Positions 1,548 to 59,699 of a stretch of 64,000 nt of DNA are shown here, piece by piece (the stretch's first letter is position 1; every line of letters begins with the position of its first letter). This DNA comes from an uncultured Chloroflexia bacterium. Lineage in GTDB: Bacteria; Chloroflexota; Limnocylindria; Limnocylindrales; CSP1-4. Below the pieces are notes generated by a model. That model did not search any database. It saw only the letters and a program-made list of their open reading frames with translations, and was not told the DNA's origin. The stretch lies in the NCBI GenBank assembly GCA_963813535.1, contig CAWEZH010000003.1:967810-1031809 (forward strand), written 5' to 3'. The translations under genes and the position numbers were made by a program.

Positions 1548-1558
1548 CCCCAGGCTCG

Positions 1559-3099: not shown

Positions 3100-3180
3100 G
3101 GGCTGACCCGTTCGGCGTGTGGTGGGAGGGACCGCTGGGCTATTCCCACCCTGACCATCGGGGTCCATCGTGGCCCGACG

Positions 3181-3459: not shown

Positions 3460-3542
3460 GACCCGCCTTCCGCAGACCGCCAGTCAGCGGGCGGTGAGCG
3501 GGATCCGCTGACCGGCAAGACCACCCGGCGTACGCTTCGGGC

Positions 3543-15300: not shown

Positions 15301-15363
15301 GTGCGCCTTCCTCCGATGCCGCAGGGATCGGCCTCAGGGCGACCAGCGGCGGTCTAGGCAGTC

Positions 15364-15389
15364 CGTGAAAAGTCTCACTGTCAATGTGA
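15364..15389. promoter_or_regulatory. CRP/FNR-like box upstream of the arylsulfatase
   Basis: cGTGAaaagtcTCACt (GTGA-N6-TCAC), overlapped by TCAC-N7-GTGA, in an AT-richer patch 65-90 bp before the start. Confidence 0.4.
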
Positions 15390-15496
15390 CTGTCCGGTCG
15401 GCGGCCGCATATGGCGCAGACACGCGTACCCGCGTGGTGCCACCGCGTATGTCGGTCATGCGTCGGCGCGAGCCGCTACCCGATCTCGACGCAGCG

Positions 15497-16381: not shown

Positions 16382-16429
16382 CAGCCCCGGTCACGCGGGG
16401 AGACGTCGGTCAGCCGGGCACCCGAAGGC

Positions 16430-18751: not shown

Positions 18752-18795
18752 GGGTCAGCCTCCTCCGTCGTGGTGGTGTATTGAGTGATCCCTGG

Positions 18796-19479: not shown

Positions 19480-19556
19480 GGAACGGGCCCGCCGAGCGCA
19501 ATCTGCGTATGGTGCCCCCTTGGCACAGGACGGTGGACCACGGTCATCACGTCGGT

Positions 19557-21224
19557 TTAGCCGGGCTGCGGGACGGGCTGCTGGGATCCCGGCGATGACG
19601 GCCGAGCCGGCACCGTGTCCTGCTCTTGGTAGGACGCCAGCAGCCGGTGCTCCTCGTCCTTGCGCGGGAACTTGAAGAAGACGAGCGCGGCGCCCAGGAG
19701 GACGGCGATGATGCCGGCCAGGTACGCCCACTGGTCGCCGGCCAGGAACGCCACTTTCGCGGCCGCGATGATCTGGTCGCTGTACTGCGGGTACTGTGCA
19801 GCGATATCGGCCGCACCCGCGTACGACATCGTGAGCTGGTTCTGCACGCTAGTCGTCAGATCGGGATTCGGCGGAGCCCCTGCCAGCGCGGCGGCTGCGG
19901 CGGCGGCGTAACCGGCCGTCAGCAACGCCCCGAAGATCGACTGCATGATCGCGCCGCCAAGGTCGCGCTGAAGGTCGGCGGTCCCGGACGCCATCCCGGC
20001 GCGTGTGACCGGTACCGAGCCCGTTAGGGACCTTGACGCGGGGGTTCCGGCGAGCCCGACCCCCACCCCAACAAGGGCGTAGCCGAGAGCCACGACGAGG
20101 TAGCTGCTGCCCTCGCCCCAGAGCAGCAGCATCGTCAGGAATCCGCCGAGGACGAACACGTATCCGAACATGAGCGTGAAGCGCGCGCCGCGGGCCTCGA
20201 CGATCACGGCCGACCGAGGGGCGACGAGGACCATCGCTAGGGCAGCCGGGATGATCGCCGTTCCGGCCTCGAAGGTCGAGTACTGCAGCACGTTCTGGAG
20301 GTATTGCTGGCCGATGAACATCGCGCCCATCAGCGATCCGAAGACGATGATGCCGGCCAGCGCGGCGACCCAGAACGTCGGCCTAGCCGCGATGTCCAGG
20401 TCGTACAGGGGATCCTTCGCCCGACGTTGGCGGATGACGAAGGCGACGGTCGCGGCCACGCAGATACCCGCCAGCCCGATCACGAGGGCAGCCATGTTGG
20501 GCACCGGCGCGAAATTGATGGCGAGGATGAGCGTCCCGACCAGGACCGCCGACAGGATGCCGCCCAGATTGTCGACCGGATCCACGGTCTCGTTCACGTG
20601 CGCCGGAACGAACCGCCACGCCATGAAGAGGGCGACGGCCGCGAGCGGCAGCGTGATCAGGAAGACCGATCCCCAGTCGAAGCGCTCGAGGAGGAAACCC
20701 GCCACCAGGGGGCCGAGGGCCGCGATGGCGCCACCGAGGGCCGACCACAGGGCGATGGACTTCGTTCGCCCGGGCCCGGGAGCCCAGAGTGCGGTGATGA
20801 GGGCGAGCGTGGTGGGGTAAGCCATGCCCGCGGAGATGCCGCCGACGATCCTCGCGACGATCAGGACCTCGATCGTGGGCGCGAACGCCGCCACCAGGCA
20901 GGCTGGGATCGACAGCCCGATACCGAGTAGCAACAGCATCTTGCGGCCGTAGCGGTCCCCGATCGCCCCGAGCCAGAGCACGGATGCGGCCAAGCCCAGC
21001 GAGTACCCGACCGCCACGAGATCGAGCGCTGTCTGCGACGCCGTGAAGGCCAGGCCGATCGATGGCAACGCGACATTTGCCACCGACAGGTTGAGGTTGG
21101 CGACCGCCGCGACGAGGATCAGGGACGCGAGGATCAGGCCTCCGCCCGATGGGATGCCGGCATCGCCCGGCTCCTGGGCGGTCTGCGCTACGGATGCAGG
21201 CCCCGGGGCGGTGTCCTCTGCCAT
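19557..21224 (-). CDS. MFS transporter (DHA2/EmrB-like, 14 TM)
   Basis: NLSVANVALPSI, GAIGDRYGRK motif A, LGPLVAG. Confidence 0.9.
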   Translation of the reverse strand: MAEDTAPGPASVAQTAQEPGDAGIPSGGGLILASLILVAAVANLNLSVANVALPSIGLAFTASQTALDLVAVGYSLGLAASVLWLGAIGDRYGRKMLLLLGIGLSIPACLVAAFAPTIEVLIVARIVGGISAGMAYPTTLALITALWAPGPGRTKSIALWSALGGAIAALGPLVAGFLLERFDWGSVFLITLPLAAVALFMAWRFVPAHVNETVDPVDNLGGILSAVLVGTLILAINFAPVPNMAALVIGLAGICVAATVAFVIRQRRAKDPLYDLDIAARPTFWVAALAGIIVFGSLMGAMFIGQQYLQNVLQYSTFEAGTAIIPAALAMVLVAPRSAVIVEARGARFTLMFGYVFVLGGFLTMLLLWGEGSSYLVVALGYALVGVGVGLAGTPASRSLTGSVPVTRAGMASGTADLQRDLGGAIMQSIFGALLTAGYAAAAAAALAGAPPNPDLTTSVQNQLTMSYAGAADIAAQYPQYSDQIIAAAKVAFLAGDQWAYLAGIIAVLLGAALVFFKFPRKDEEHRLLASYQEQDTVPARPSSPGSQQPVPQPG

Positions 21225-21239
21225 TAGAGTCGCCGGCGA

Positions 21240-21506
21240 TCAGGCGTTGGACTGGCTGCCTGCCCAGAGCGCGAACAGGCGAAGGAAGTGGCCCATGCCG
21301 GCCACGAGCAAAGCCAGGAAGATCGGCCCACCGATCGCTGAGAGTGACAGGCCGAGCGCCTGAAGGAAGTTGAATGCCGGACTCGACGCCAGGTCGAGGA
21401 ACCACAGGACGCCGGACACGACCGCATAGATCACGGTGAACCATCCGATGTACACGAAGAACGTCGCGACGTTCGCGAGTGTCCGGGCTTCTGCGCGGAT
21501 GTCCAT
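21240..21506 (-). CDS. small two-TM membrane protein
   Basis: AAGGAG RBS before MDIRAEARTL; two hydrophobic helices. Confidence 0.65.
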   Translation of the reverse strand: MDIRAEARTLANVATFFVYIGWFTVIYAVVSGVLWFLDLASSPAFNFLQALGLSLSAIGGPIFLALLVAGMGHFLRLFALWAGSQSNA

Positions 21507-21670
21507 GGCCCTCACTCCTTGCACCGCCGGGTTGCACACGCATGGCCCCAGTCGTGTCTCGATGGTGGCGACGTGGCGCACTGAGTGGGATGGCGCGGAC
21601 AGGTCGCGTGACGGGGGCAGGCCAGCCTCTTTCGCGCGCGTAGGGCGCCGGGAGCGGGACTCGCCGGCGC

Positions 21671-22642
21671 TCAGCTCCGCGGGCGCACGATGCAGCGAAA
21701 GCCGATGTGCGCAGTCGACGTCTCGACGGCCTGCGCCTGTCGGGCCGCCGGCCTGTAGCGAAGGCAATAGTTGGGAGCGCACAGGTGGGAACCGCCCTTC
21801 ACCACGCGTCGCGGGAAGTTCTCACCCGGGCGGCCCGTGTCGTAGCTCTGGTCGGGCGAGGTGACACGAGGATTCGAGACCGGCCCGCAGCAGGCATGAC
21901 GCGGCTCTTCGTCGTGATGCGGCGTATAGAAGTCGGTCGTCCACTCCCAGACGTTGCCTGCCATGTCGTACAAGCCGTAGCCGTTCGGCGGGAAGGTGGC
22001 TACCGGCGAGGTCCCCTCGTAGCGATCCTCGAGCGTGTTCTGCCACGGGAATTCGCCCTGCCACGTGTTGGCCATCATCCGGCCCCGCGGTTTGAACTCG
22101 TCGCCCCATGTGAACATCTTGCCCTCGAGACCGCCTCGCGCGGCGAACTCCCACTCTGCCTCGGTGGGCAGGGCCTTATCCGTCCAGGTCGCATAGGCTT
22201 CGACGTCCTCCCACGCGACGTGCGTGACCGGGTGCCGCTCTCGCCCGTTCAAGGTGCTCCCGGGTCCTTCCGGGTGACGCCAGTCCGCGCCGGGCACGTA
22301 CCGCCACCAATTCCGGTAATCGTCGAGAGGGACGGGGCCCCGGGTGCGCTGGAAGACCAGCGATCCGGGCACAAGCATGTTCGGGTCCGCGTCCGGGTAG
22401 TCCGCAGGATCGAGCGGCCGCTCGGCGAGGGTGACGTAGCCGGAGTCCTTCACGAAACGGCGGAACTCCGCGACCGTGACCTGGTGGAGGTCGATCCAGA
22501 ACCCGTCAACAGCGGCGTCGTGGACTGGTCGCTCCTCGGCATAGTGGTCGTCGGAGCCCATGAGGAACGAGCCACCAGGGATCCAGGCCATGTCCTTTGC
22601 AGGCGGCGCTCCGGATCCGTCGACCGTGGCCTCAGCGGTCAC
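21671..22642 (-). CDS. formylglycine-generating enzyme (sulfatase-modifying factor)
   Basis: FLMGSD, LPTEAEWEFAARGG, PPNGYGLYDMAGNVWEW, KGGSHLCAPNYCLRYR with both catalytic Cys. Confidence 0.95.
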   Translation of the reverse strand: MTAEATVDGSGAPPAKDMAWIPGGSFLMGSDDHYAEERPVHDAAVDGFWIDLHQVTVAEFRRFVKDSGYVTLAERPLDPADYPDADPNMLVPGSLVFQRTRGPVPLDDYRNWWRYVPGADWRHPEGPGSTLNGRERHPVTHVAWEDVEAYATWTDKALPTEAEWEFAARGGLEGKMFTWGDEFKPRGRMMANTWQGEFPWQNTLEDRYEGTSPVATFPPNGYGLYDMAGNVWEWTTDFYTPHHDEEPRHACCGPVSNPRVTSPDQSYDTGRPGENFPRRVVKGGSHLCAPNYCLRYRPAARQAQAVETSTAHIGFRCIVRPRS

Positions 22643-45992: not shown

Positions 45993-46273
45993 GCGAGCCG
46001 CTTGATCCGGGCGCCTATATCGGGCAGGAGCCCGAGCTGGAGGAAGAGACCATCCCGGGCGGGCTGAAGCCCGGCGACGAGCGTGTCGCCGCCCACGACG
46101 CCGCTCCTGGCGTGCCGGGCGAGCCGAACGCTCCCGCAGGTCGGCCTGACGGGCGGTCAGAGTTTGATCGCCTCCGCGATGCGGGCCAGGCGGCCGACGA
46201 AGGGTCATCGAACGGCCCGGATGGCGATCAGGCTTCGCGATCCGATGCCGGCGAGTCGACTCCGACACGCTAG
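45989..46273 (+). CDS. small acidic disordered hypothetical protein
   Basis: ATGA overlap with the upstream gene. Confidence 0.55.
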   Translation: MSEPLDPGAYIGQEPELEEETIPGGLKPGDERVAAHDAAPGVPGEPNAPAGRPDGRSEFDRLRDAGQAADEGSSNGPDGDQASRSDAGESTPTR

Positions 46274-46379
46274 GACCGACCGCAACCCAGTCAGGTCCGA
46301 CGGCGCGATCCGGATCGCCCCGGTCGTCCGGCCGTCCTTACGGGGAAACGGTCGGGACCAAGCTTCAGAGGAGGATCAC

Positions 46380-47591
46380 GTGTCACCGCGCCCTGGGGTG
46401 GACGCCCCGCCCCGGTCGACCGATCGGTTTCGGATCGGAGTCCTATCACCGCCGATGTTACCGGTCCCACCCGCGCGATACGCGGGAACGGAACGGATCG
46501 TCGCGACCCTAGCCCAGGGCTTGCACCGCCGAGGGCACGAGGTGACGCTCTTTGGCCCGGGGGACTCACAGGTCGACTGCAGACTCGTCCCGACCGTGCC
46601 CCGGAGCCTGTGGTCCACGGGGTACCGCGGTGATCTGTCGGCCTATCTAGGCATCACGGTCGGCAAGGCCTGGGCGATGGCGGACGAATTCGACATCATC
46701 CACTCGAACATCGATACCTTCGGCCTGCCGTTCGCCCGCTGGTGCGCGACACCGGTCGTTTCTACATTGCATGGCCGCCTTGACGGCGCGGGTCATCCCG
46801 CACTGCTCGATGAATTCGAGGACGTGCCGCTCGTCGCGATCAGCGAAAGCCAGCGCCGCTGGTCTCCCCGCGCCAACTGGGTGGCGACGATCCACCACGG
46901 ACTGGAGCTCACCGGCGCGCCCTTCGGCTCGACCCCCGGCGACTATCTCGCGTTCATCGGTCGGATCGCTCCGGAGAAGGGCGTGGTGGATGCCGTCGCT
47001 CTTGCACGCGCGACTGGCCTCCGACTGCGGATCGGAGCCAAGGTGTATGACGATCGCGAGCGTGAGCTGTTCGATCGGGTCGTCGCGCCCGCCGTGGCTG
47101 ATGGCGTAGTCGAGTACCTCGGCGAGGTCGGTCCGAGGGAGCGCGACGAGGTCTACGCCGGCGCCCTGGCGACCGTGATGCTCGGGGCTTGGCCGGAGCC
47201 ATTCGGCTTGGTCGCGATCGAGTCGATGGCGACCGGGACCCCGGTCATCGCGCGTCGGGCGGGGGCGCTGCCGGAGATCGTCCAGCAGGGTCAGACGGGG
47301 TTCCTCGTGGACGACCTTCAGGAGGCAGTTCTCGCGGTCGAGCGCGCCAGCACCGTCGATCGGAGAGCCGTCCGTCGCGACGTCTTGGAACGGTTCTCAG
47401 CGGAGCGGATGCTCGATGAATACGAGCGGGTCTATCGCAGCCTTGTCAGAGCCTCCACACCGATCCCCTTGGAGGTCAAGCTCGACGCCGAGCCGCTCAC
47501 TGCTGTAGCCGGCGGTGGGCGAGCCGAACGGCGCTCGGATCGCGGGGACCGGCAGCCAGCGACGGCGGGCGCAATCGACGCGCGCGGCTAG
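46380..47591 (+). CDS. glycosyltransferase family 4
   Basis: PVPPARYAGTER, FIGRIAPEKG, WPEPFGLVAIESMATGTPVIA. Confidence 0.92.
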   Translation: MSPRPGVDAPPRSTDRFRIGVLSPPMLPVPPARYAGTERIVATLAQGLHRRGHEVTLFGPGDSQVDCRLVPTVPRSLWSTGYRGDLSAYLGITVGKAWAMADEFDIIHSNIDTFGLPFARWCATPVVSTLHGRLDGAGHPALLDEFEDVPLVAISESQRRWSPRANWVATIHHGLELTGAPFGSTPGDYLAFIGRIAPEKGVVDAVALARATGLRLRIGAKVYDDRERELFDRVVAPAVADGVVEYLGEVGPRERDEVYAGALATVMLGAWPEPFGLVAIESMATGTPVIARRAGALPEIVQQGQTGFLVDDLQEAVLAVERASTVDRRAVRRDVLERFSAERMLDEYERVYRSLVRASTPIPLEVKLDAEPLTAVAGGGRAERRSDRGDRQPATAGAIDARG

Positions 47592-47592
47592 C

Positions 47593-49659
47593 ATGCCCGC
47601 GCCGCTGAGCCCTGATCCCGTCACGGAGCACGTGCCGGGTCGGCTTCCGCCATACCTTTCGAATGGGATCCTCGGCATTCGAATGGCCTCGTTCCCGGGC
47701 TTGCCCGGTACCACGATGGTCGGCGGTTTTGCCGGGCTGTCGCCTGACGGGGTCGAAGGCTTTGCTCAGGCGCCATATGGGCTTGCCACCGACATCCAGC
47801 TCAATGGGGTATGGGCATCCTTGGCGCCAGAGTGGTGCCGGCTCATCGATCAACGCTACGATTTCGCGAGGGGGGAGCTCCAGACGTGCTGGACGTTCCG
47901 AGCACGCGGAGCGACGGCAACCATCGAGACGGTGGCGTTCTGTCCCAGGTCGGTCCCGAGCATCGGTGCGGTCGACATGACCGTCCGCCTGGACCAGCCC
48001 GCCGATCTGGCCATCGCCGGCGGGGTCGATCCGTCAGACGTGCCGGGATTCGGCGACAACCAAGCGCAGCCGCAGGACCAAGGACCGAACGAAGGGGTCG
48101 ATGGGCGTCTGCGCTGGCACTCGGGAGGCGACATCTCGACGGTCGGCATCGCCTACACGACCGCGTTCTCGGGAGACTCATCCGCGGAGCGCACGACTGC
48201 CATGAAGGACGAGCGCGGACGATTTTCGACGACATACCGACTGCGCGTACGGGCGGATCGACGCTACCGCCTCAGCCTCCTCACGGCGATCGTCCCCGAG
48301 CTCTCGCATGCCAGGCCGGATGAGCAGGCCGGTCGCGTCGCGGCGGTCGGGGCCAAACGAACATTCGATGGCCTGCGTCGCGAGAACCGCGCCGAGTGGG
48401 ATGAGCTGTGGCGAGGCCGCATCGTCATCGATGGCGCGGATCGACGTTGGCAGGCGATCACGGATGCGAGCCTCTTCTACCTGCTGACCTCGACCCATTC
48501 GGCGTCGTTGGCCAGCACGTCGTTATTCGGCCTCGCGTACTGGCCGAACTACCACTACTACCACGGCCACGTAATGTGGGACATCGAGACTTTCACCGTT
48601 CCGCCCTTGCTGCTTCTTGCGCCGGACGCTGCTCACGCTCTCCTCGACTACCGGTTTCGTCATCTGACCGCCGCCCATCACAACGCAGCGATGCATGGCT
48701 GGCGCGGCGCGATGTACCCATGGGAGAGCTGCCCCGAGCACGGCGAGGAATCGACGCCTGGCGCTCGACCCTACACGGAAGACCACGTGAGCGCGGATGT
48801 CGCGCTGGCGTTCGCGGGCTACGTCAACGCCACCGGCGACGCCGATTACGCGCGGCGTGTGGCCTGGCCGGTGCTGCGGTCCGTCGCCGAGCTGGTCGTC
48901 TCCCGGGTTGCCCGCTCCAGGCGGGGCTACGAGATCCTCGGCACGGTCGGTCCGCGCGAGGTGTACACGCCGGTCGACAACAACGCCTACACGAACATGT
49001 CGGCCGCGATGAGCCTCAGGGCGGCCCTCGATTGCGCCGAGATGATCAACGAACCCGGGTCAGACCTTTGGCGAGACATCGCCGACGGACTCGCCGTGCC
49101 CCGCGATCGTCGGCGGGGTGCCATCCTCAACCATGACGGCGCGACCCTTCGGGAGTCGCAGGGCGGTGTCCCCGAGGGAGCGGCCGGGCTCTTTCCGGTC
49201 GGGTATCGAGTGGACCCCGCGACAGCGCTCGCGACGTATCGATATGCCGCAGTCGAACAGGCACCCCTGTATGTGGGCGCACCGATGCTAAGCGCCCTGT
49301 TGCCGGTCTTCGCGGCGCGGGCCGGCGAGTCCGCTTTGGCCCGCGACCTCCTCGAAACTGGCTACGGCGAATTCATCAACGACCCGTTCCTCGAGCCGGA
49401 CGAATATCCGAGATCACGCGACGATCGGCCACGAGCCTCGCCCATGTTCGCGAATCTCAGCGGCTATCTCACGAGCGTCCTCTACGGTTTCACAGGCCTG
49501 CAGATCAATCCCGGGAGCCCGGATTCCTGGTCGCTCCATCCCGTCCGGTTACCTGATGGCTGGCGAGCGATCAACCTCGACCGTGTGTGGGTCCGCGGCA
49601 AGGCGCACTCCCTTGAGGCACGCTCCGGCGCGCTTGCCCGTTTGTCGACGGCTTCCTGA
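47593..49659 (+). CDS. glycoside hydrolase family 65-like protein
   Basis: YLSNG.LG, YHGHVMWDIETF, GAMYPWES, VGPRE, DNNAYTN. Confidence 0.82.
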   Translation: MPAPLSPDPVTEHVPGRLPPYLSNGILGIRMASFPGLPGTTMVGGFAGLSPDGVEGFAQAPYGLATDIQLNGVWASLAPEWCRLIDQRYDFARGELQTCWTFRARGATATIETVAFCPRSVPSIGAVDMTVRLDQPADLAIAGGVDPSDVPGFGDNQAQPQDQGPNEGVDGRLRWHSGGDISTVGIAYTTAFSGDSSAERTTAMKDERGRFSTTYRLRVRADRRYRLSLLTAIVPELSHARPDEQAGRVAAVGAKRTFDGLRRENRAEWDELWRGRIVIDGADRRWQAITDASLFYLLTSTHSASLASTSLFGLAYWPNYHYYHGHVMWDIETFTVPPLLLLAPDAAHALLDYRFRHLTAAHHNAAMHGWRGAMYPWESCPEHGEESTPGARPYTEDHVSADVALAFAGYVNATGDADYARRVAWPVLRSVAELVVSRVARSRRGYEILGTVGPREVYTPVDNNAYTNMSAAMSLRAALDCAEMINEPGSDLWRDIADGLAVPRDRRRGAILNHDGATLRESQGGVPEGAAGLFPVGYRVDPATALATYRYAAVEQAPLYVGAPMLSALLPVFAARAGESALARDLLETGYGEFINDPFLEPDEYPRSRDDRPRASPMFANLSGYLTSVLYGFTGLQINPGSPDSWSLHPVRLPDGWRAINLDRVWVRGKAHSLEARSGALARLSTAS

Positions 49660-49812: not shown

Positions 49813-50277
49813 TCAGGCGGCCTGCCTCTGCCGACCCCTCATCAGCGCATACCCGACCGCGATCAAGATCACTCCCCATACGAGGAACGCGAGGTCGTAG
49901 AGCACTTCGTCGGGTCCGGGTCGCACGTGATGCAGGTTCAGCAGGTAGTGATCAACGATGCCCTCGGCAATGTTGAAAACACCCCAACCGATGAGCATTC
50001 CGGCGACGAGTGTCTGGCTGCCGCCGTCTTCGTGGCGGGCGCCATTCGAGGTCATGAGGACGAAGATGCCCGCGACGGTCAGGACCCAAGTGGCGCCGTG
50101 GAAGACGCCGTCGCCCAGGGTGTTGAGCTGTAGGTTGGCGATCGTGTCCGGCGGTATGGGCGTGCTCACCATGTGGTGCCACTGCAGGATTTGGTGCAGG
50201 ACGATGCCATCGAAGAAGCCGCCGAGCGCGACACCCAACAGGACGGCGGCGATGACCAGACGCCGGCGGTTCGGCAC
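49813..50277 (-). CDS. DUF2243 family membrane protein (copy 1)
   Basis: GGFFDGIVLHQILQWHHM...DG.FH...EG..DH.LL.LHHVR. Confidence 0.88.
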   Translation of the reverse strand: MPNRRRLVIAAVLLGVALGGFFDGIVLHQILQWHHMVSTPIPPDTIANLQLNTLGDGVFHGATWVLTVAGIFVLMTSNGARHEDGGSQTLVAGMLIGWGVFNIAEGIVDHYLLNLHHVRPGPDEVLYDLAFLVWGVILIAVGYALMRGRQRQAA

Positions 50278-50290
50278 AGGTCTCCCTCGA

Positions 50291-50377
50291 CTACCGCTCG
50301 GGGAGTGCTCGAAGCATGACGATGACCGCCAGCGCCAGCGTCGCGACGACGATCAGGACCAGGATCTCGTCCGTCAT
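50291..50377 (-). CDS. putative 28-aa single-TM peptide
   Basis: MTDEILVLIVVATLALAVIVMLRALPER, ending just before the DUF2243 RBS. Confidence 0.4.
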   Translation of the reverse strand: MTDEILVLIVVATLALAVIVMLRALPER

Positions 50378-51025
50378 GGCGTGACTACGCTTTCCCGAGG
50401 GCTTGTCGTCGCTCAAGTCGGCGAACGCGGCTCGATGATCCTGTTGGCGGCCTACCGCTGGTCCGCAGCAGGACGATCTCCCGACGTCGACATGGTCCGT
50501 CATGAACTGGCCTTGGCCGTCGTGCGACGGAGTGCTTGTCCCTGCCGCTATCGATCCGCTCTCGCTTCCATGCTGGCATGCGCGCCCTCCTCGAGGGATC
50601 CGTAAGGGCTCAATAGGATGCAGTCGTGTTCCCTTCGGTCCTCCCACAACTGCGCGCTAGGACGGTACGCCCGCGTTACGAGAGTCATCCGGTCGGCCGA
50701 ACTATCACATCCCGCAACCCCGGCGGCGAGCCAGTCGGGGTCGATCGAAGCCACTCCCTCAGGAGGCTTGTGGGCACGACGCGGGCCGCTGAGATGACGG
50801 CATGACCTCGCGACCGGAGCGTCAACGCCGGCCGCGAAACGACGGATGCCGATTCCCTGAGATGGTTCTGCCACGGTTGTTGGCCACCCTGTCGTCTGGG
50901 ATCTGCCACCTGCCGTGACACCGTGGGCCATGCGACCCCGCTCTCCAACTTGGCGTCGAAGGGTCCGTCTGCGTCGTCGCCGCGCTCGCCGTCGGCGATA
51001 GGCTAGGCAAAGTCACCTCTGGTCG

Positions 51026-52327
51026 ATGTGCCGCATGCTCACCAAAAGCAAGCACGCTCCGAACGGTCGCGTCCGCCGTGTCAGTCACGCTCGGCTGCCT
51101 ACCCGCATCGGGACGTTCGATGCGTTCGCCTACTCGGATGCGCGTACCGGGACCGAGCCTGTCGCCCTCGTTCACGGCGACCTCGCCGGGCGAGACGCAC
51201 CGCTCGTGCGGCTCCATTCCGAGTGCTGGACTGGCGACGTGCTGGGCTCCCTTCGATGCGACTGCGGCGAGCAGCTCGGCCGCGCTCTGACCGCCATCGT
51301 CGCCGAGGGCGCGGGCGTGCTCCTCTATCTCAGGCAGGAGGGTCGGGGGATCGGGCTGGCGAACAAGCTGCGAGCGTACGCGCTCCAGGACGGCGGGCTC
51401 GACACCGTCTCCGCCAACGCCGCACTCGGCCTCCCGGTCGACGACCGTGAGTACGGTGCCGCCGCCGCCATCCTCGCCGATCTGGGACTGGAGCGGGTGC
51501 GGCTGATGACCAACAACCCCGACAAGGTGGCGGCGCTCGAAGGACACGATATCCGCGTCGATCGCGTACCGCTCGTGGCGCTTCCGAACCCGGTGGATCA
51601 GCCGTATCTCGAGACGAAAGCCGCCCGCCTCGGACACCTCCAGCCCCACATGGCCGCTCGGCCCTCAGTCACCGTGCACTACGCCCAGACGATCGACGGG
51701 CGTCTCGCGACGCGAACTGGCGATTCGCAGTGGATCAGCGGCCAGGAGTCCCTGGTGATGGCGCACGCATTGCGCGCATCGCACGCGGCCGTGCTCGTCG
51801 GCGCTGGCACCGTGGCCGCCGACGATCCGCGGCTGACCTCCCGACTCGTTGAAGGTCCCTCGCCGATCCGCGTGGTCCTGGACAGCAAGCTACGCCTTTC
51901 GCCCGACGCCAATGTCGTTGCTGACGGCGCCGCGCCGACGATCCTGGCGACAACAGAGCTGGCGCCCGTCGACCGGCGCCGGATGTTCGGGCGGCGCGCC
52001 GTCGAGGTCCTCGTTCTCCCGTCCACGCCGGACGGTCGGGTGGACCTCGGGTCGCTCCTGGACGAGCTGGGGGCCAGAGGCACGGCCACGCTGCTCGTGG
52101 AGGGAGGAGCCAGCGTGATCACGGCGATGATCCGCGAACGCCGAGTGAGTCGGCTGGTCGTGTCGATCGCGCCGCTGGTCCTGGGCAAGGGGATCGAGGC
52201 CGTCGGTGACCTTGACATCCTGCGGCTGCGCGACGCCCTGACATTCCGTCGCGCGGCGTTCTCCCAGCTAGGTCCGGACGTGATCTTCGACGGCGAGCTG
52301 GAACCCCGGAGCGAAGGTGATGCCTGA
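51026..52327 (+). CDS. ribA: GTP cyclohydrolase II fused to a RibD-type pyrimidine reductase domain
   Basis: RLHSECWTGDVLGSLRCDCG, QEGRGIGLANK, MTNNP. Then AQTIDG, VGAGTV..DDPRL, LLVEGG. Confidence 0.9.
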   Translation: MCRMLTKSKHAPNGRVRRVSHARLPTRIGTFDAFAYSDARTGTEPVALVHGDLAGRDAPLVRLHSECWTGDVLGSLRCDCGEQLGRALTAIVAEGAGVLLYLRQEGRGIGLANKLRAYALQDGGLDTVSANAALGLPVDDREYGAAAAILADLGLERVRLMTNNPDKVAALEGHDIRVDRVPLVALPNPVDQPYLETKAARLGHLQPHMAARPSVTVHYAQTIDGRLATRTGDSQWISGQESLVMAHALRASHAAVLVGAGTVAADDPRLTSRLVEGPSPIRVVLDSKLRLSPDANVVADGAAPTILATTELAPVDRRRMFGRRAVEVLVLPSTPDGRVDLGSLLDELGARGTATLLVEGGASVITAMIRERRVSRLVVSIAPLVLGKGIEAVGDLDILRLRDALTFRRAAFSQLGPDVIFDGELEPRSEGDA

Positions 52328-53327
52328 GGCCGTCTGGTTCGGCGGACCGCAGCGCGTGGAGATCCGGCCGGAACCCGACGCCCCCGTCGGGCCCGACGAC
52401 GTCCGGGTCCGCGCACTTGTCTCGGGGATCAGTGCCGGGAGCGAGCTCCTCGTCTATCGCGGCAGTGCCCCGCCCGAGTCACAGCCCGATCTCCCCACCG
52501 TCAGCGGCGACTTCGGCTTCCCGATCAAGTTCGCCTACGCGAGCGTTGGGCGCGTGATCGAGGTCGGCTCGAACGTCAGCCGGCCGGCGGTCGATGACGT
52601 CGTGTTCGTGCACCATCCGCATCAGACCGAATACGTCGTGCCGGCTGACGCTCCGATCCGGCTGCCCGAAGGTCTCCCGGCCGACGTCGGGGTGTTCGCC
52701 GCGAACCTCGAGACGGCCGTGACGGTAGGGCTCGACGCCCATCCGCGCATCGGAGAAGCGGTCCTCGTGACTGGCCAGGGCGTCGTTGGGCTGCTGGTCA
52801 CGATGCTCCTCCGGAGAGCCGGAGCGAATCCGATCGTGACCGCTGATCTGCACGAGCGACGTCGGGCCGCATCCGCCGCCGCGGGCGCGACCCACGCACT
52901 TGGCGTGGACGTCGACCTAGTCGACGCCGTGCTCGAACTCACCGATGGGCGCGGCGTGGACGTCGCGATCGAGGTCAGCGGGAGCCCCGCCGCTCTCCAG
53001 GCCTGCATCGACGCGACGGCGTTCGCCGGGACCGTCGTCGTCGCATCGTGGTACGGGACTCGCGACGCCAACTTGAGCCTCGGTGGCCGCTTCCATCGCC
53101 GTCGCCTGCGGGTCGTCAGCTCGCAGGTGTCGACGCTCGATCCGGCCCTCGCGCCACGCTGGGATCGAGCTCGACGTATCGGACCTGGTGTCGGAGCTGC
53201 TGAAGCGAGTTGCCGTTGAACGAGCTGATCACTCACCGGTTCCCTTTGGCCCAGGCGGCCGCGGCGTACGAGCTGCTCGACCAGCATGCTGGACGAGTGC
53301 CTGCAGGTGGTGCTGGACTATGTTTGA
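52320..53327 (+). CDS. zinc-binding (MDR) dehydrogenase; frameshifts near 53180 and 53290
   Basis: SGISAGSELLVYRG, HHPHQT, ANLETA, GQGVVG, SWYG, FHRRRL..SSQV. LITHRFP and QVVLDY lie in shifted frames. Confidence 0.82.
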
Positions 53328-53711
53328 GGTCGGCGTCGCGCGGACGTTCCATGCGCTCCACCAACTCGAGGCCGACGATCCGGTCGCGAGCGGCGAACAC
53401 GATCACGACTACCGTGCCGAGGTTGTCGCGCGGGGCGACCATCTCGACGAGAATGCCATGCTCGTCGACCTCGACCTACTCGGGGCGGCGTTGTCGGAGT
53501 GCCTCGCCGAGCTCGACTCCGTGGATCTCGGAAGCCTGAGCCGCCTTCGCGGGCCGGAATACCACGGTCGAGACGGTCGCCGAGCACGTCTGGACCCATG
53601 TCCGGGACGGTCTGGCTCAGCGCGCCGGCGCTCGCCAGTCTCCGCGTCACCGTCTACGAGTCAACTGACGCCTGGGCGTCCGTCGACCGAACGGTCGGCG
53701 ATCGGTCGTGA
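53320..53711 (+). CDS. 6-pyruvoyl-tetrahydropterin synthase / QueD-like (COG0720) T-fold protein; two frameshifts
   Basis: FHALHQL...HDHDYRAEV, MLVDLD, FAGRNTTVETVA, VTVYES, recovered by joining frames. Confidence 0.75.
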
Positions 53712-54810
53712 TCGGCTGACAACACCTCGTCGATGATCGCGAAGAAGCGTGCCGCCGTCTCGTCCCATGTCGGACGCGCCGCCGCCCGCGATGCTGGGCC
53801 GCGCGTCCCAGCCGCTCTCGAAGCGCTGGGTCGCGGGCCAGCGACTTCGATCGCATCACGTAAGCGCCGGGACGTCGCCCACGGCCACGAGCATGCCGTC
53901 GCGACCGTGATCGGCCAGGAACGGCAGGTTCCCGGCGCGCCAGCCGACCACCGGGAGCCCCATCGCCATCGCCTCTCCCCAAACTGTTCCGTACGTCTCC
54001 TCGAAGCTTGGCAGCAGGAACGCGTCGACCGCCTGGTACATCTGAAGCACGGCCGCGGGGTGGATGAGGCCGTGCACCACGACCCGATCACGGAGGTCGG
54101 GGCGCTCGATGCGCTCGTGCACACGAGCTGCGTACCCGCCGCGCGTGGCCGTATCGCCGACGAGGTGGAGGGTGGCCACGTCGTCGGGCAGGCACGCGAC
54201 GGCCTCGAGGAGTTCGATGATCCCCTTCCACGGTTGCCAGTTCGCGACGCAGAGGGCGGCCATCAGACGGCCTTGTCGGAGGCTGGCCCGATCGACGCCA
54301 GCCGATCTGGTGCGCGTCGGTCCGACCGCCCGTTGCAACGTCCAGGTCCTTGCCGGGCTCGACGACCCGGATCCTGTCGCCGGGGAAACCGGCGACCACG
54401 AGCTCGGCCGCGAGCCAGTCGCTGGCCACCATGAGGACGTTGCAGGCGCGGTAGGCGTGCCGGTCGAAGGTGGCCCGGAACCGACGCAGGACGCGAGGCG
54501 CGCCGATCCCGCCGGGCGGCTGATGCAGCATCCCGACGATCGGCGCCCGGACACGGCGGAGCCAGGGGGCGGCGGCGCTCGCCGCGATGCTGTCCAGAAC
54601 GAGCACGTCGGCTCTGCGGGTCGCACGCGCGAGCAGCCACGCGGGTCCGGCCGCCGTCGCCCAAGGCAGCGGCAGGTCGGGGATCGAGACGAACCGGAGC
54701 TCAGCGCCGTGGTCCGGCGCGCGCTCCGCGAGGCGCCGGTGGAACAAGTAGCCGCCCGTCACGCGGCTTGGATCGCCGACCGTTAGGAGTGTCACCTGGG
54801 TCCGTGTCAT
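53654..54810 (-). CDS. glycosyltransferase family 4; several frameshifts
   Basis: GDPSRVTGGYLF, VLDS, CVAN...KG, PSFEETYGTVWGEAMAMGLPVV, PTWDETA. Confidence 0.8.
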
Positions 54811-54954
54811 TCAGTCGCTCCCAGTGCAGTCGGAAGCAAGGCCTGTTCGCCGGCGAGCGATACCCTCTCGAACTAGCGCGCGCGCTCGCACAGCATGACT
54901 TGTGTGAGCTCGTGACATTTCGGATCGGAAGCCGGGACGCACGGGCGCCCTTCT

Positions 54955-55431
54955 CTACCGGCGGCCGGCGTTCCGAACCATCGCAAGTCCGAGGACGAGC
55001 ATCACGACGCCCCACATGAGGAACCCGAGGTCGTAGAGCACCTCGTCCGGTCCCGGGCGAACGTGGTGGAGTTGGAGGAGGTGGTGGTCGACCACCCCCT
55101 CCACGGTGTTGAACAGGCCCCAGCCGGCGAGCATCCCACCGATGAGCGTCGGGGTACCGCCTGGCTCGTGTCGTGCGCCGTTCGAGGACATGAGGACGAA
55201 CACGCCGGCCACCGTCAGGACCCACGTAGCCGCGTGGAAGATCCCGTCGCCCAAGGTGTTGATCTGAAGGTTCTCAAGGGTGTCGGGTGGCGTCGGCGTA
55301 CTGACCATGTGATGCCACTGCAGGATCTGGTGAAGGACGATGCCGTCGAAGAACCCGCCGAGGCCAAGACCAAGCAGGACCGAGGCGACGATGAGCCGCC
55401 GCCGATCGGGCGACCGTGTCAGGTACGTCAT
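54955..55431 (-). CDS. DUF2243 family membrane protein (copy 2)
   Basis: Same motifs as 49813-50277, with long identical blocks. Confidence 0.88.
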   Translation of the reverse strand: MTYLTRSPDRRRLIVASVLLGLGLGGFFDGIVLHQILQWHHMVSTPTPPDTLENLQINTLGDGIFHAATWVLTVAGVFVLMSSNGARHEPGGTPTLIGGMLAGWGLFNTVEGVVDHHLLQLHHVRPGPDEVLYDLGFLMWGVVMLVLGLAMVRNAGRR

Positions 55432-55631
55432 CGGACGCTGATGTCCATTGGCGTGTAGCGTGACGCACAGGCGGTCGGTGGCTCGATCCCCGGAGGACGT
55501 CGGCGCATACCACTGTCATCGCGAACCGCTGCGCGACTCCGCTCGATAACGGCAAGACGTCGGAGTAGCCGTCCGTCGGCGCAGGCTGGGACCCGCCGTG
55601 GGCCCGGCCCGCTTGACCGGTCGCCCGGCGA

Positions 55632-56386: not shown

Positions 56387-56431
56387 ATGCAGGCATTTGT
56401 CCAGGACCGGTACGGCGGGCCGGAGGTGCTC
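56387..56431 (+). pseudogene. N-terminal remnant of an NAD(P)-dependent alcohol dehydrogenase/quinone reductase
   Basis: RBS plus MQAFVQDRYGGPEVL, compared with MKAVVQRRYGPPEVL in the gene at 58661. Confidence 0.6.
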
Positions 56432-56459
56432 ATCACCCGGGAGAGGAGGGATCCTGACC

Positions 56460-57622
56460 ATGCGCCTGCTTCGTGAGCTGTCGCGGCGCAAGCTGCGGAC
56501 GACGCTGACCATCAGCGGCATCACCATCGGCATCTGGGCGCTCGTCGTCTTCAGCTCGATGGCCAACCAGATCAACGGCCTCGTCGGCATGGGCTCCGAG
56601 TTCTACGCCGACAAGATCACGGTCACCGACGGCGGTTGCCTTCGGGACGTCGCCGATGCGACTCACGGATGCCGACGCCATCGCTTCCGTCGCCGGGGTT
56701 GCAGCGGCGGACCCGAGGGTGGAAGTGTTCTGGGAAAGCGACCCGGCCGTCGGATTCAGCGTTCCCGACACGATCAACGGACTGATCCCGGGAGCCGACG
56801 CAGGCTACGAGAGCTTCGAGCTCGAGCTCGCCACCGGACGAATGCTGACTGTCGATGACGCCGGCGACGTCGTGGTCCTCGGGTCGGACCTGGCTCGCGA
56901 GCACAACGTGGTGGCGGGTGACTCGATCGACATCCGGGACCGGGCCTTCGAGGTGATCGGCACGCTGCAGCAGACGCTCACCGCCCCTGACAACGACAGG
57001 CTATGTCCCACTGGCGACGGCACAGGCGCTGTATCTCACTGACCTCCCGCCGCTCGTGGCCGAGTCATTGAACGCAGCCGAGATCGTCAACCAGGTCGAT
57101 CGCTTATCCGGCTGCCGGCGCGGACATCGCAGCCGTTGCATCGGCGATCGAGGCGGCCGTCGAGAACAGCGCCACCATGACCGGTGCCGAGTTCGAGGAG
57201 ACCGTCGGCGCCACGACGATGATCTTCAACGCGATCATCATCGGCGTCGCCGCCATCAGCCTGATCGTCGGCGGCCTGTCGGTCATCAACACGATGGCGA
57301 TGAGCGTCGCCGAGCGGACCCGCGAGATCGGCATCAAGCGCGCCATCGGTGGTTCCCGCAGCCGGATCGTTCGCGAGCTCGTCGCCGAGGCCGGTGTCAT
57401 CGGACTGCTCGGCGGGCTGATCGGCCTCGGTCTCGGTGCGCCTGGTCGTCGTGCTCGTCAACGAGATGACGCGGGCCGCGCGGGACGGTCCTCTTCGACC
57501 TGACGCCGACGACCGCCGCGTTCGCCGTCGGCTTCAGCACGATCCTCGGAATGCTGGCCGGAATCATCCCGGCCTGGAGCGCGGCCCGGCTCGACCCGGT
57601 CGCGGCCCTGCGATACGAGTGA
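56460..57622 (+). CDS. ABC transporter permease (MacB/FtsX family); multiple frameshifts
   Basis: [61 protein letters not shown] across frames. Confidence 0.82.
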
Positions 57623-57636
57623 TGAAGGAGCCAGCC

Positions 57637-58423
57637 ATGACCCTCCTCGAGGGTACGAACCTGCGCAAGACCTACCGAATGTCTCGACGGACGAGCGTCG
57701 ACGCCCTGCGCGGCGTCGACGTCAGCATCGCCGCCGGCGAGATGGTCGCGATCATGGGGCCGTCGGGCTCGGGCAAGAGCACCTTGATGCACGTCCTCGG
57801 GTCTGCTCCACGCACCGGACCGTGACGGCGGTCTCGCGCCGGGCCTTCGGTTCAACGGGATCGATGTCACGAGCCTGTCAGACCGCGAGCGAACGCGGAT
57901 CAGGGCGCGCTCCATGGGGTTCGTGTTCCAGTCGTTCAACCTGGTGCCGACGCTGACGGCGGAAGAGAACGTGGCGCTGGCGGCGGAGTACGCGGGGACG
58001 TCGCGGAGCAGGCGCGAGTCGCTGCCCGGGAGGCACTCGCGTCGGTCGGTCTCGCGGATCGGGCCGACACACCGGCCGATGGAGCTCTCTGGTGGCGAAC
58101 AGCAGCGGGCAGCCATCGCGCGAGCCCTGGTCAACAATCCGACGATCGTTCTCGGTGACGAGCCGACCGGCAACCTCGACTCCGCACGCGCTGCGGAGGT
58201 GCTGGCGCTACTTCGGACGTTCAACCGGGAGCGAGGCCAGACGGTACTGCTCGTCACGCACGACGCCGAAGTCGGCGCCACCTGCGACCGCATCATCAGG
58301 ATGCGGGACGGCGTGATCGTCGCCGACGAGCGCGTGCCGGCCCGGGCGACCCTCGAAGCCGACAGACTTCGGCCGATCGCCTCGAGCACACCCGGAGCAG
58401 CAATCCCGGTTCCGGTGGCTTGA
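57637..58423 (+). CDS. ABC transporter ATP-binding protein (LolD/MacB-like); frameshifted
   Basis: [40 protein letters not shown]. Confidence 0.88.
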
Positions 58424-58660
58424 GCGGTGGCACCGATCGAGTCGACCACCACCGTAGGCCATGGCGCCCGACGCGGGCACCCCTCCTGGCGGAATTGGTC
58501 CTCCGCCTCACGGGGGAGGGCTCTCGATCCTCCTCGCCCGGATGTCCACCTTCCGGGGGTGGCTGACCGTTCCTCAGGGCGGCGACGCCAGCCCAATGCG
58601 CCCATACCGTCGATCCCCTACCGACCGACCCAACCTTCATTCGAAGTCAAGGAGCTAGAG

Positions 58661-59699
58661 ATGACAATGGGAACAACCCGTGACCGCGACCAAGCCCTGG
58701 TCGGCGACGCCTTGCCGGCCGAGGCGGTGATGAAGGCTGTCGTGCAACGCCGCTACGGGCCTCCCGAGGTGCTCGAGTACACCGATGTGGGCCGGCCGGT
58801 CGTGGGGGACGGCGACGTCCTGGTCGGCGTCCGCGCCGCTTCGGTCCACCCCGGCGACTACTTCGTGATGACCGGCGTGCCGAGCATCGTGCGGCTGGCG
58901 TTCGGTCTGCATCGGCCGCGCCATCCCATCCCTGGCAGAGACCTGGCCGGCGTGGTGGCGGCCGTCGGCAAGGACGTCACTGATCTGCAACCGGGCAATG
59001 AGGTGTTCGGCTGGAGCACCACCGGCACGCTCGCCGAGTACGCGTGCGTGCCCGGCGGACCAACTCGTGCGCACACCGGCCAACCTCTCCGCGGGCCAGG
59101 CCGCCGCGGTGCCCACGTCTGGCCTCACCGCGTTGCAGGCGCTGCGGGACATCGCGCACGTGCAGCCGGGGCAGGCGGTGCTGATCACCGGCGCATCGGG
59201 CGGCGTCGGGACGTTTGCCGTCCAGATCGCCAAGGCGCTCGGGGCAGAGGTGACCGGAGTGTGCAGCACCCGCAACATGGAGCTGGTCCGGTCGGTGGGC
59301 GCCGACCACGTCATCGACTACACGCGCACGGACTTCACCCGCACGGGGCTGCGCTACGACGTCACCTTCGACAGCGTGGAAGCGCAGTCCCTGTCGGAGG
59401 TCCGCCGGGCGCTCACACCCACCGGCACCCTCATCCCCAACAGCGGACGAGGCGGCCTGTGGGTCGGACCTCTGGGCCGGATCGTCAAGGCGCGCGCGCG
59501 GTCGCTGTTCACCCGCCAGACCCTGCGGCCGTTCACCTCAGTCGGGAAGCGCCAAGACCTGCTTGAGCTGGCAGAACTTCTCGAGACGGGGCGACTCACG
59601 CCGGTCATCGACCGCACCTACCCGCTGACCGAGGCGGCCGAGGCCCTCCGCTACGTCGGGGCCGGCCACACCCGAGGGAAGGTCGTCGTCACCGTCTGA
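58661..59699 (+). CDS. NAD(P)-dependent alcohol dehydrogenase / quinone oxidoreductase (MDR); frameshift near 59050
   Basis: MKAVVQRRYGPPEVL, GRDLAG, LAEYA; then TALQAL, GASGGVGTFAVQIAK, PVIDRTY, GKVVV. Confidence 0.88.

Follow-up and report, generated by a model that had tools for sequence, protein, structure and literature searches.

The pterin glycoside pathways of cyanobacteria and Chlorobium start from GTP cyclohydrolase I (GCH I) and make use of a 6-pyruvoyl-tetrahydropterin synthase (PTPS) that bears a cysteine. In Chlamydia, it has been described that RibA and TrpF together yield dihydroneopterin monophosphate, a route by which a pterin is reached through GTP cyclohydrolase II (GCH II) (relevant part of PMC4161248). 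A further system is an orphan cluster type in which an extra GCH II gene lies beside a gene for a COG0720 protein, that is, a protein of the PTPS/QueD fold. This type is represented by SCO6650-SCO6655 and by the subgroup PTPS-IV, to which a section of PMC5445326 gives the signature FGPAQ and a neighbourhood with PF00925, the GCH II domain. In the literature searched, which mostly did not extend to subscription journals, no paper assigning a product to this cluster was found. Here, we analyse a new, compact and fused variant of it from Chloroflexota, located at positions 51026-54810 of contig CAWEZH010000003.1 as numbered in the window, by which we mean the whole stretch of 64,000 nt that was analysed. 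The parts of this cluster are ordinary and their combination is unusual. From the enzymes that they are predicted to encode, we consider it probable that its four genes form a dedicated branch from GTP which does not lead to riboflavin, and that the product is a non-riboflavin, GTP-derived glycoside.

Results

The cluster consists of genes for a fusion of GCH II with a RibD_C reductase domain, a medium-chain dehydrogenase/reductase (MDR) and a Cys-less PTPS-fold protein (hereafter T-fold protein) and, convergent to these three, a gene for a family 4 glycosyltransferase (GT4) (Table 1). The MDR gene starts (ATG 52320) within the last codons of the fusion gene, and the T-fold gene (ATG 53320) within the last codons of the MDR gene, the overlap being 8 nt in both cases (ATGCCTGA and ATGTTTGA, respectively). 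GT4, which is read downwards from 54810, overlaps the 3' end of the T-fold gene (stop 53709-53711). No ribE, ribH, ribB or deaminase gene was found in the 64-kb window by Pfam scans, which covered 55 further open reading frames (ORFs). Nor was there an FMN riboswitch, since no Rfam family matched the window at its gathering score; at E<=1, two matches were obtained over 50200-55600, both at chance level. The first-pass annotation, made from the DNA letters alone, had described three overlap-coupled genes with a convergent GT4 and had noted the lack of ribE/ribH and of an FMN riboswitch nearby, and all of this was recovered. The G+C content of the window is 64-75%, and its nearest protein relatives belong to metagenome-assembled genomes (MAGs) of uncultured Chloroflexia, Candidatus Limnocylindria or Limnocylindrales. 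Relatives of the cluster were collected in a genome scan with the fusion protein, in which the best 80 of 560 confirmed stretches were designated L001-L080; L001-L021 encode the fusion. As the window copy contains frame breaks (see below), intact orthologues from L012 are quoted beside it.

Table 1. Coordinates of the cluster genes and of two adjoining features in the window, with the basis of each assignment.
Feature	Positions	Strand	Basis
GTP cyclohydrolase II–RibD_C fusion, intact	51026..52327 (likely start ATG 51035)	+	Pfam, NCBIfam
BchC-like MDR, without catalytic zinc ligands, probably NAD-dependent	52320..53327	+	PF00107, alignments
Cys-less PTPS/QueD-fold (T-fold, COG0720) protein	53320..53711	+	PF01242, AF2, Foldseek
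GT4 glycosyltransferase, convergent to the three-gene operon	53654..54810	-	Pfam GT4/GT1 domains
5' leader	50914..51034	+	window copy aligned with 8-9 close relatives
N-terminal stub of a second, divergent GT4 (GT4-2)	54834..54920	+	tblastn

The fusion protein, whose conserved start is probably the ATG at 51035 according to the alignment of relatives, carries two Pfam domains alone, PF00925 (GTP_cyclohydro2, residues 18-179, E=2.9e-64) and PF01872 (RibD_C, residues 213-420, E=4.5e-48). Neither a deaminase nor a 3,4-dihydroxy-2-butanone 4-phosphate (DHBP) synthase domain was detected by Pfam, in agreement with the earlier reading of a direct fusion lacking both deaminase and RibB. The protein exceeds the cut-offs of the ribA models TIGR00505 (230.7 bits versus 205.85) and NF001591 (236.3 versus 148). 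Its GCH II domain aligns over the full length with E. coli RibA (2bz0), and the equivalents of the zinc ligands Cys54/65/67, of Arg128 and of Tyr105 are kept, in the segments hseC...lrCdCg, ...der... and ...raY. Judged by these residues, the GCH II active site of the fusion is complete and belongs to the type whose product is 2,5-diamino-6-ribosylamino-4(3H)-pyrimidinone 5'-phosphate (DAROPP). Spoonamore et al. are said to have found in 2006 that the choice between Tyr and Met governs the product of GCH II, the third RibA of Streptomyces coelicolor reportedly giving a formylated product. The RibA of a related cluster in Streptomyces fungicidicus, near which a creatininase-family gene is found, has Met at the Tyr105 position, which presumably fits such a formylated product.

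The reductase half passes the general model TIGR00227 (ribD_Cterm, 169.5 bits, cut-off 150.15). It fails the test for a eubacterial bifunctional RibD (eubact_ribD, 126 bits, cut-off 156.35), and it also stays below the cut-off for archaeal DAROPP reductases (TIGR01508, rib_reduct_arch, 129.3 bits versus 186.45). The reductase position that selects the substrate is Lys151 in Bacillus subtilis RibG, which uses the deaminated compound (5-amino-6-ribosylamino-2,4(1H,3H)-pyrimidinedione 5'-phosphate, AROPP), Thr35 in yeast and Asn in archaea (as given in a section of PMC3631187). At this position, which is 152 in E. coli RibD, the fusion has His (VTVHYAQTIDG versus VTLKAAASLDG). Both Chloroflexi clades and Thiodictyon have His there and Agrobacterium has Gln, whereas the references BsRibG/7lrh and MjaRED/6p8c have Lys and Asn, respectively. 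Since His takes the place of the AROPP-selecting Lys and there is no deaminase, the sequence argues that the 2-amino group of the pyrimidine is kept.

The best match of the reductase in the PDB was the DAROPP reductase 6p8c. With the archaeal and fungal enzymes of this kind (MjaRED 2azn, 6p8c, yeast Rib7) it shares the fold family, the lack of a fused deaminase and a determinant other than Lys, although this is His instead of Asn or Thr, the score falls short of the archaeal equivalog cut-off and the domain is fused to GCH II. Compared with canonical RibA/RibBA and RibD, both halves pass the respective models and the catalytic residues of GCH II are conserved, but there is no deaminase domain, no RibB, no nearby ribE/ribH or FMN riboswitch, and His replaces Lys. 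In a protein search, 7964 relatives were found among 8000 candidates scored. The best 120 listed, down to 68% identity, all carry both Pfam domains and, therefore, the fusion is a stable protein of this lineage.

The T-fold protein of the window reads ...FHALHQLE...ASGEHDHDY..., so that, as had been read directly from the letters, H...HDH is kept and the preceding Cys is missing; orthologues show A-S-H-E-H-S-H-D-Y where the window has A-S-G-E-H-D-H-D-Y. PF01242 (cut-off 22.4) is matched with 30.8 bits by the window piece and with 75.8 bits by the intact orthologue (L012:8665-9054), and the QueD equivalog TIGR03367 with 39.8 bits, below its cut-off of 89.25. The published motifs CxxxHGH (QueD/PTPS-I), CxxxxxHGH (PTPS-II) and ExxHGH (PTPS-III), as set out in a section of PMC5041015, are all absent from the protein. 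FGPAQ is likewise absent, the corresponding stretch being DDPVAS/DDPAAS. A search of 1.84 billion proteins gave 589 matches at E<=0.001, 36 at <=1e-10 and 3 at <=1e-30, and all four motifs are likewise missing from 112 of the 150 best representatives. Three of the representatives, P0128 (855 aa), P0142 (488 aa) and P0161 (824 aa), contain three PTPS-like stretches each, in tandem T-fold architectures, and two of them have a motif of the FGPAQ/FGAAQ type.

SCO6650 (3d7j) was the best PDB match of the T-fold protein by sequence (E=2.1e-6) and also by fold when the AlphaFold2 (AF2) model of an orthologue (pLDDT 93) was searched with Foldseek (TM 0.88), followed by E. coli QueD (TM 0.78) and PTPSs and, more weakly, by dihydroneopterin aldolases. 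In an alignment of 35 family members, made up of Cys-less relatives chosen from five loci and 30 of the best matches, H14, H29, Y31 and E84 are invariant and H27 and E113 nearly so (L012 numbering). The His triad that binds the metal in this fold (H14, H27 and H29) is thus kept. The Glu residues in the TTEN and VYET segments of rat PTPS (1b66), which we take to hold the 2-amino-4-oxo-pyrimidine face of the pterin, correspond to E84 and E113.

A quick COG0720 tree with SH-aLRT support was built from 135 of 155 rows, 20 having been dropped for lengths <110 or >170 aa. QueD and PTPS-III formed one group (SH-aLRT 97) with the Chloroflexi protein outside it, so that the placement proposed earlier as a check did not join the protein with QueD. 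Another group, of FGPA type (SH-aLRT 95), contained the cluster proteins of Agrobacterium, Thiodictyon and Streptomyces without the Chloroflexi one, which belonged to a small separate clade (SH-aLRT 99) inside an unresolved Cys-less assemblage that includes the Natronorubrum protein. The first-pass annotation had related the cluster to PTPS-IV. This holds as far as the closeness to SCO6650 and the presence of GCH II (PF00925) in the neighbourhood are concerned, but not for the FGPAQ signature nor for membership of the FGPA-type group. The protein is a member of a Cys-less group related to PTPS-IV which keeps HxH.

The MDR matches PF00107 (ADH_zinc_N; 71.2 bits in the window and 67.2 in the L012 orthologue, cut-off 31.8). 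Its best NCBIfam match, over the full length, was bchC (TIGR01202), with 92.9 bits far below the cut-off of 291.25, and there is no photosynthesis context at the cluster. It had been called a Zn dehydrogenase, a name that the residues contradict: compared with threonine dehydrogenase 2dfv, Ala takes the place of the Cys of GxCxxD and GYS that of GHE, and alignment to threonine dehydrogenases shows that the structural-zinc lobe of about 25 residues is missing. Across MDR orthologues the catalytic Cys position is occupied by A, H, P, S or R, and the zinc ligands are likewise absent in orthologues of five phyla. A conserved Asp comes after a GxGxxG motif, an arrangement found in NAD-dependent enzymes, and the MDR is probably NAD-dependent. 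A search of the ESM Atlas with the MDR was uninformative, as it returned generic alcohol-dehydrogenase cluster names, with one of the ten clusters listed named BchC-like.

The GT4, both as pieces in the window and as the intact orthologue L012:9107-10294, scored above the cut-offs of PF13439, PF13579, PF00534 and PF13692, and reached no curated NCBIfam equivalog. Its best PDB sequence matches were the sucrose-phosphate-synthase-like protein Tll1590 and MshA, and the weak ones included tetrahydrobiopterin glucosyltransferases (E=3.9e-5 to 1.3e-4). An N-terminal signature, (S/T)GG.x(Y/F)(D/H)R(R/K/E), is common to it and to the cluster GT4 proteins of Rhizobiaceae, Streptomyces and haloarchaea. 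A second Chloroflexi GT4, GT4-2, is without this signature. It is full length and divergent from the cluster GT4 in L003, L006 and L009, and the stub in the window shows 83% identity to the L003 copy (L003:12423-13526) over residues 13-42 (tblastn). Stubs of 25-68 residues are present in L001 (11759-11893), L005 (11950-12063), L007 (11836-11910) and L012 (10200-10404), and it looks as if GT4-2 has been lost repeatedly at about the same place.

The order fusion, MDR, T-fold gene and convergent GT4 was found in all 11 close loci with enough flank (L001-L009, L011 and L012); in L010 the contig ends just inside the MDR gene. The close relatives L001-L012 show 80-89% identity, and the genes beyond the four-gene block vary between loci. 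A hydrolase of the haloacid dehalogenase (HAD) type lies between the T-fold gene and GT4 in L003 and L004. Its recurrence in all 11 loci makes the gene order more than chance. The cluster is a conserved unit and, as had been proposed, not a fragment of a riboflavin operon. L022-L080, in comparison, match the GCH II half alone. GCH II is unfused in these 59 loci, 43 of which show a separate RibD_C match some 1.2-2.7 kb upstream, the layout of ordinary rib operons.

A second clade, L013-L021, shares about 56% identity. The MDR gene follows the fusion gene in eight of these nine loci and, where the flank is long enough (six loci), GT4 comes next in the same orientation. A PTPS gene was not found at any of the nine; instead, a gene for FolB (PF02152) lies divergently beside the fusion in four (L015 7588-7959, L018 6155-6571, L019 and L021). 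This FolB reads ...GGLDIAAV..., with Ile at the candidate catalytic position, which we assume to be that of the catalytic Tyr in dihydroneopterin aldolases, and it may be a non-standard aldolase. A PlsC-type acyltransferase gene precedes the fusion in three loci of the second clade, and a response regulator gene takes that place in the others.

Related clusters in other phyla were looked for with the intact MDR by tblastn against plasmids, which gave 26 records at E<=1e-20, 11 of which were inspected. Nine of these contain a related cluster; the other two, both from Streptomyces, contain a distant homologue in another context. Among the 11 contexts, a PTPS gene follows the MDR gene in eight, GT4 is present in seven, an annotated class I methyltransferase in seven (plus a weak methyltransferase match in the Haloarcula marismortui plasmid pNG700, L081), a CDP-alcohol phosphatidyltransferase in six, a RibD-family gene in four, ribA or GCH IIa in four, and a protein with LPG_synthase_TM, an MprF-like flippase domain, in three. 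One of the eight PTPS genes is that of L081, where a PTPS-like frame with one frame change lies between MDR and GT4 (7984-8390) and is absent from the gene table; it is either a pseudogene or a gene omitted from the PLSDB table.

In Agrobacterium pAt and in Rhizobium sp. SL42, genes for a CDP-alcohol phosphatidyltransferase and ribA stand on one strand and, on the other, MDR, a "6-carboxytetrahydropterin synthase", GT4 and a class I methyltransferase. A RibD-family gene and cytochrome b561 come after these, and the flippase-like LPG_synthase_TM protein is encoded close by. Thiodictyon (Chromatiales) has the same set as these Rhizobiaceae, all on one strand. In Streptomyces fungicidicus, this core is found together with a creatininase-family gene, ribA and an LPG_synthase_TM ORF which is absent from the gene table. 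MDR, PTPS gene, GT4 and methyltransferase are found in Natronorubrum, Haladaptatus and Haloarcula, with the CDP-alcohol transferase in Natronorubrum and Haloarcula; in Natrarchaeobaculum, a gene for GTP cyclohydrolase IIa overlaps the start of the MDR gene. A Rhodobacteraceae plasmid contains MDR, PTPS gene, methyltransferase and RibD only.

The Chloroflexi MDR shows 38-45% identity to the MDRs of the plasmid clusters, and the best match of its T-fold protein among the cluster proteins was that of Natronorubrum (33%, 4e-12). These values and the common N-terminal signature of GT4 support orthology across phyla, and the MDR, PTPS-like protein and GT4 are conserved partners in both Bacteria and Archaea. 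This agrees with the earlier statement that extra ribA/ribD, dehydrogenase and glycosyltransferase genes clustered with COG0720 are a known type, as orthologues of MDR, PTPS-like protein and GT4 cluster with ribA/RibD-family genes on bacterial and haloarchaeal plasmids. For none of these proteins was a curated NCBIfam cut-off reached. Because a methyltransferase, a CDP-alcohol phosphatidyltransferase and the MprF-like domain occur in these clusters, their gene content points to a membrane-linked end product in other phyla.

The frameshifts reported in the first-pass annotation are indeed present in the given sequence. Nine insertion events, all within 1.15 kb (53179-54301), separate the window from every aligned relative. 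Three single-base insertions are in the 3' end of the MDR gene (53179, 53206 and 53296) and two in the T-fold gene (53539 and 53619), according to DNA alignments with seven relatives, and four insertion events are in GT4 (54301, 53860, 53847 and 53787-53786; alignment with six relatives). If these frameshifts were real, the window copy would be a decaying pseudogene cluster and the pathway would be off in this organism, an explanation which would fit the number and density of the breaks, the location of none of them in a homopolymer, and the reduction of a second GT4 to a stub beside the cluster. We regard it as unlikely. The nine events consist of insertions only, without a single deletion, and the fusion gene and the first 285 codons of the MDR gene are free of breaks. 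The affected frames show no in-frame stop and no excess of amino-acid change, and the ratio of nonsynonymous to synonymous substitution (dN/dS) in comparison with L007 is 0.27 over the 146 codons of GT4 that come after its first break, against 0.18, 0.20 and 0.22 in the unbroken fusion, MDR and GT4 N-terminus, respectively.

Furthermore, unrelated neighbours at 56397-59699, which encode a MacB/FtsX permease, its ABC ATPase and a zinc-type alcohol dehydrogenase (ADH), are also split over two or three frames, probably by the same kind of error. When the intact L012 proteins were used as queries, breaks in the cluster genes, at other places, were found in five of the ten loci from the MAG series named "MFD...contig_" (L005, L006, L008, L009 and L011) and in none of the 11 other loci. 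The breaks look technical since all are insertions, the frames are under purifying selection, the breaks are confined to one assembly series and neighbouring genes are split too, and by this pattern they are most likely assembly errors. What speaks for a recent real inactivation is that insertions outside homopolymers are unlike the classic long-read error.

Upstream of the fusion gene, a leader of about 120 nt is conserved in the window, L001-L009 and L011. A nearly invariant CTCTGGTCGCC...CATG precedes the start codon, and relatives have a -10-like GATAAT in the leader. A structured leader or riboswitch was rejected, as RNAalifold gave 3 pairs at -0.75 kcal/mol without compensatory change; five single-sequence folds of the leader had z-scores of -1.14 to +0.50, and no Rfam family matched it. 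A consensus scan over 50200-55500 gave no promoter-like site and one terminator-like site, which was not above shuffles. The conserved stretch may act as a promoter, a protein binding site or a leader.

Two genes for DUF2243 membrane proteins, at 49813-50277 (-) and 54955-55431 (-), bracket the cluster. They have 74% amino acid identity and are direct repeats 5136 nt apart. Just upstream of the cluster, at 46083-49659 (+), lie genes for a further GT4 (GT4up, 502 aa as read) and for a protein of glycoside hydrolase family 65 (GH65), whose best NCBIfam match was kojibiose hydrolase (230 bits versus a cut-off of 800). DUF2243 had been considered as an optional addition to the four genes in the first-pass annotation, but among L001-L021 the genes for DUF2243, GT4up and GH65 recur near it in L001 alone, and all three were rejected as conserved members. 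In L001 they stand on the other side of the cluster, which suggests a local rearrangement or duplication. A TetR gene was also rejected, as it recurs in none of L001-L021. Elsewhere in the window, a sulfatase island at 12937-22642 (-) contains two large sulfatase genes and genes for a DUF389 protein, a major facilitator superfamily (MFS) transporter and a formylglycine-generating enzyme (FGE-sulfatase). Positions 1-5004 are the part with the highest G+C content (72-75%) and have long ORFs, e.g., 952-3168 (738 aa), without a Pfam match at E<=1e-5.

Discussion

We propose that the fusion makes 2,5-diamino-6-ribitylamino-4(3H)-pyrimidinone 5'-phosphate and that the MDR would then re-oxidise a hydroxyl of the ribityl chain with NAD+, most likely at C2'. 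TarJ, an MDR that oxidises C2 of ribitol 5-phosphate, performs a reaction of this type. Oxidation at C2' would give a keto-amine, the redox equivalent of the Amadori step of GCH I, which could close onto the 5-amino group to yield a pterin resembling dihydroneopterin 3'-phosphate, and compounds of just this sort are bound by PTPS-fold and FolB enzymes. The T-fold enzyme would bind and process this pterin, a task that FolB may have in the second Chloroflexi clade, and GT4 would add a sugar; the HAD enzyme of L003 and L004 would fit a later dephosphorylation. The end product here would be a pterin-type glycoside or, if the ring stays open, a glycoside of the ribityl-aminopyrimidine. Methylation would come next in other phyla, as would transfer to CDP-diacylglycerol or CDP-archaeol, and the product there would probably be methylated and lipid-linked. 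Every step after the reductase is a proposal, and the oxidation site of the MDR, the ring closure and the sugar are conjecture. The pterin route is attractive because a PTPS-fold gene or FolB stands beside the core, the pterin-binding Glu is retained and there is the chlamydial precedent. The best solved relatives of GT4, the sucrose-phosphate-synthase-like protein and MshA, act on phosphorylated polyols or sugars.

Several observations weigh against this proposal. A route that reduces and then oxidises is roundabout in comparison with a simple Amadori isomerase. The T-fold protein has, at the published positions, neither the Cys of PTPS-I/II nor the Glu of PTPS-III that serves as the general base. 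Five of the nine second-clade loci are without a T-fold gene beside the cluster, where this step may be dispensable or encoded elsewhere. By tblastn, the window contained none of the methyltransferase, CDP-alcohol phosphatidyltransferase, cytochrome b and creatininase genes of the other phyla, and neither did L001-L021 up to about 8 kb from the cluster; for the first two, four examples each gave no match in the window or in L001-L080, and the Chloroflexi product may differ from that of the other phyla. Finally, a passage of the review PMC5041015 assigns PTPS-IV to F420 synthesis, citing unpublished work.

This assignment would favour another explanation, namely that the cluster supplies a precursor for riboflavin or F420 in the archaeal/fungal order, reduction coming first and the T-fold protein or another member acting as the deaminase. 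The scores of the reductase on the archaeal and eubacterial RibD models are indeed nearly equal, its best PDB match is a DAROPP reductase, and the other rib genes are absent from the 64-kb window. Haloarchaeal and Streptomyces clusters contain GCH IIa or a creatininase-family gene, and a creatininase-family formamidase acts in riboflavin synthesis, as stated in part of PMC9478397. Even so, we give this explanation little credence. GT4, which is always present, and the methyltransferase and CDP-alcohol phosphatidyltransferase that are usual elsewhere have no role in riboflavin or F420 synthesis, and no lumazine synthase, riboflavin synthase, DHBP synthase or FO synthase gene stands beside any inspected cluster. 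Four inspected clusters are on plasmids of Rhizobiaceae or Streptomyces, organisms that have canonical chromosomal rib genes. Moreover, in its passage on the third RibA of S. coelicolor, a 2026 review describes a new function unrelated to flavin synthesis (PMC13151069).

A bypass of GCH I towards folate, in which fusion and MDR would form dihydroneopterin phosphate and a PTPS-III-like T-fold protein or FolB would convert it to 6-hydroxymethyl-dihydropterin, could draw on the FolB genes beside the fusion in four of nine second-clade loci, on the ability of PTPS-III to replace FolB (section of PMC5041015) and on the circumvention of FolE by RibA and an isomerase in Chlamydia (relevant part of PMC4161248), but it is highly improbable given that the ExxHGH motif of PTPS-III is absent, that an invariable GT4 has no place in folate synthesis, that neither folK nor folP stands beside the cluster in any inspected locus and that the second-clade FolB has Ile where we presume the catalytic Tyr to be.

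The proposed glycoside branch can be compared with each of the described systems. Like the chlamydial FolE bypass, it would build the pterin ring from the product of GCH II instead of GCH I, although one isomerase does so there and a reductase and a dehydrogenase are proposed here. With the pterin glycoside pathways it shares the pairing of a PTPS-fold enzyme with a GT-B glycosyltransferase, but the GT4 of our cluster is closer to the sucrose-phosphate-synthase-like and MshA enzymes. The likeness is greatest to the PTPS-IV or SCO6650-SCO6655-type cluster, which has orthologous GCH II, RibD_C reductase, BchC-like MDR, Cys-less T-fold protein and GT4 with the signature, SCO6650 being the best match of the Chloroflexi T-fold protein in sequence and fold. 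In the Chloroflexi form, however, GCH II and reductase are fused, Tyr stands in place of the Met of the Streptomyces RibA, HxH is present and FGPAQ absent in the T-fold protein, and GT4 is convergent. It is also without a nearby methyltransferase, CDP-alcohol phosphatidyltransferase, flippase-like protein, cytochrome b or creatininase. Aminopentanetetrol lipids, suggested by the presence of the CDP-alcohol transferase, were considered as the product and are at most a remote candidate, since papers found to mention that lipid pointed to no link in biosynthesis and the steps of GT4, MDR and T-fold protein are at odds with it.

More speculatively, the Chloroflexi genes might be the minimal core of a pathway of Bacteria and Archaea that makes an undescribed GTP-derived headgroup without GCH I. 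The steps would be those of GCH II or GCH IIa, reduction of the pyrimidine, re-oxidation of the ribityl chain by the zinc-less MDR with NAD, ring closure and processing on the Cys-less T-fold enzyme, and glycosylation. Elsewhere, this headgroup would be methylated, joined to a phospholipid by the CDP-alcohol phosphatidyltransferase and flipped by the MprF-like domain, giving a new pterin or aminopyrimidine membrane lipid which is possibly redox-active, while in Chloroflexi a free or acylated glycoside would result; we consider this a tentative idea that is rather doubtful in its full extent.

The same core was shown in Chloroflexota, Alpha- and Gammaproteobacteria, Streptomyces and haloarchaea, mostly with lipid-headgroup enzymes. 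With four genes, two of its enzymes fused and no membrane proteins, the Chloroflexi form is the easiest version for reconstitution in vitro. The product of the pathway would be a new fate of GTP, beside folate, riboflavin, queuosine and molybdopterin, and might be a new kind of membrane lipid.

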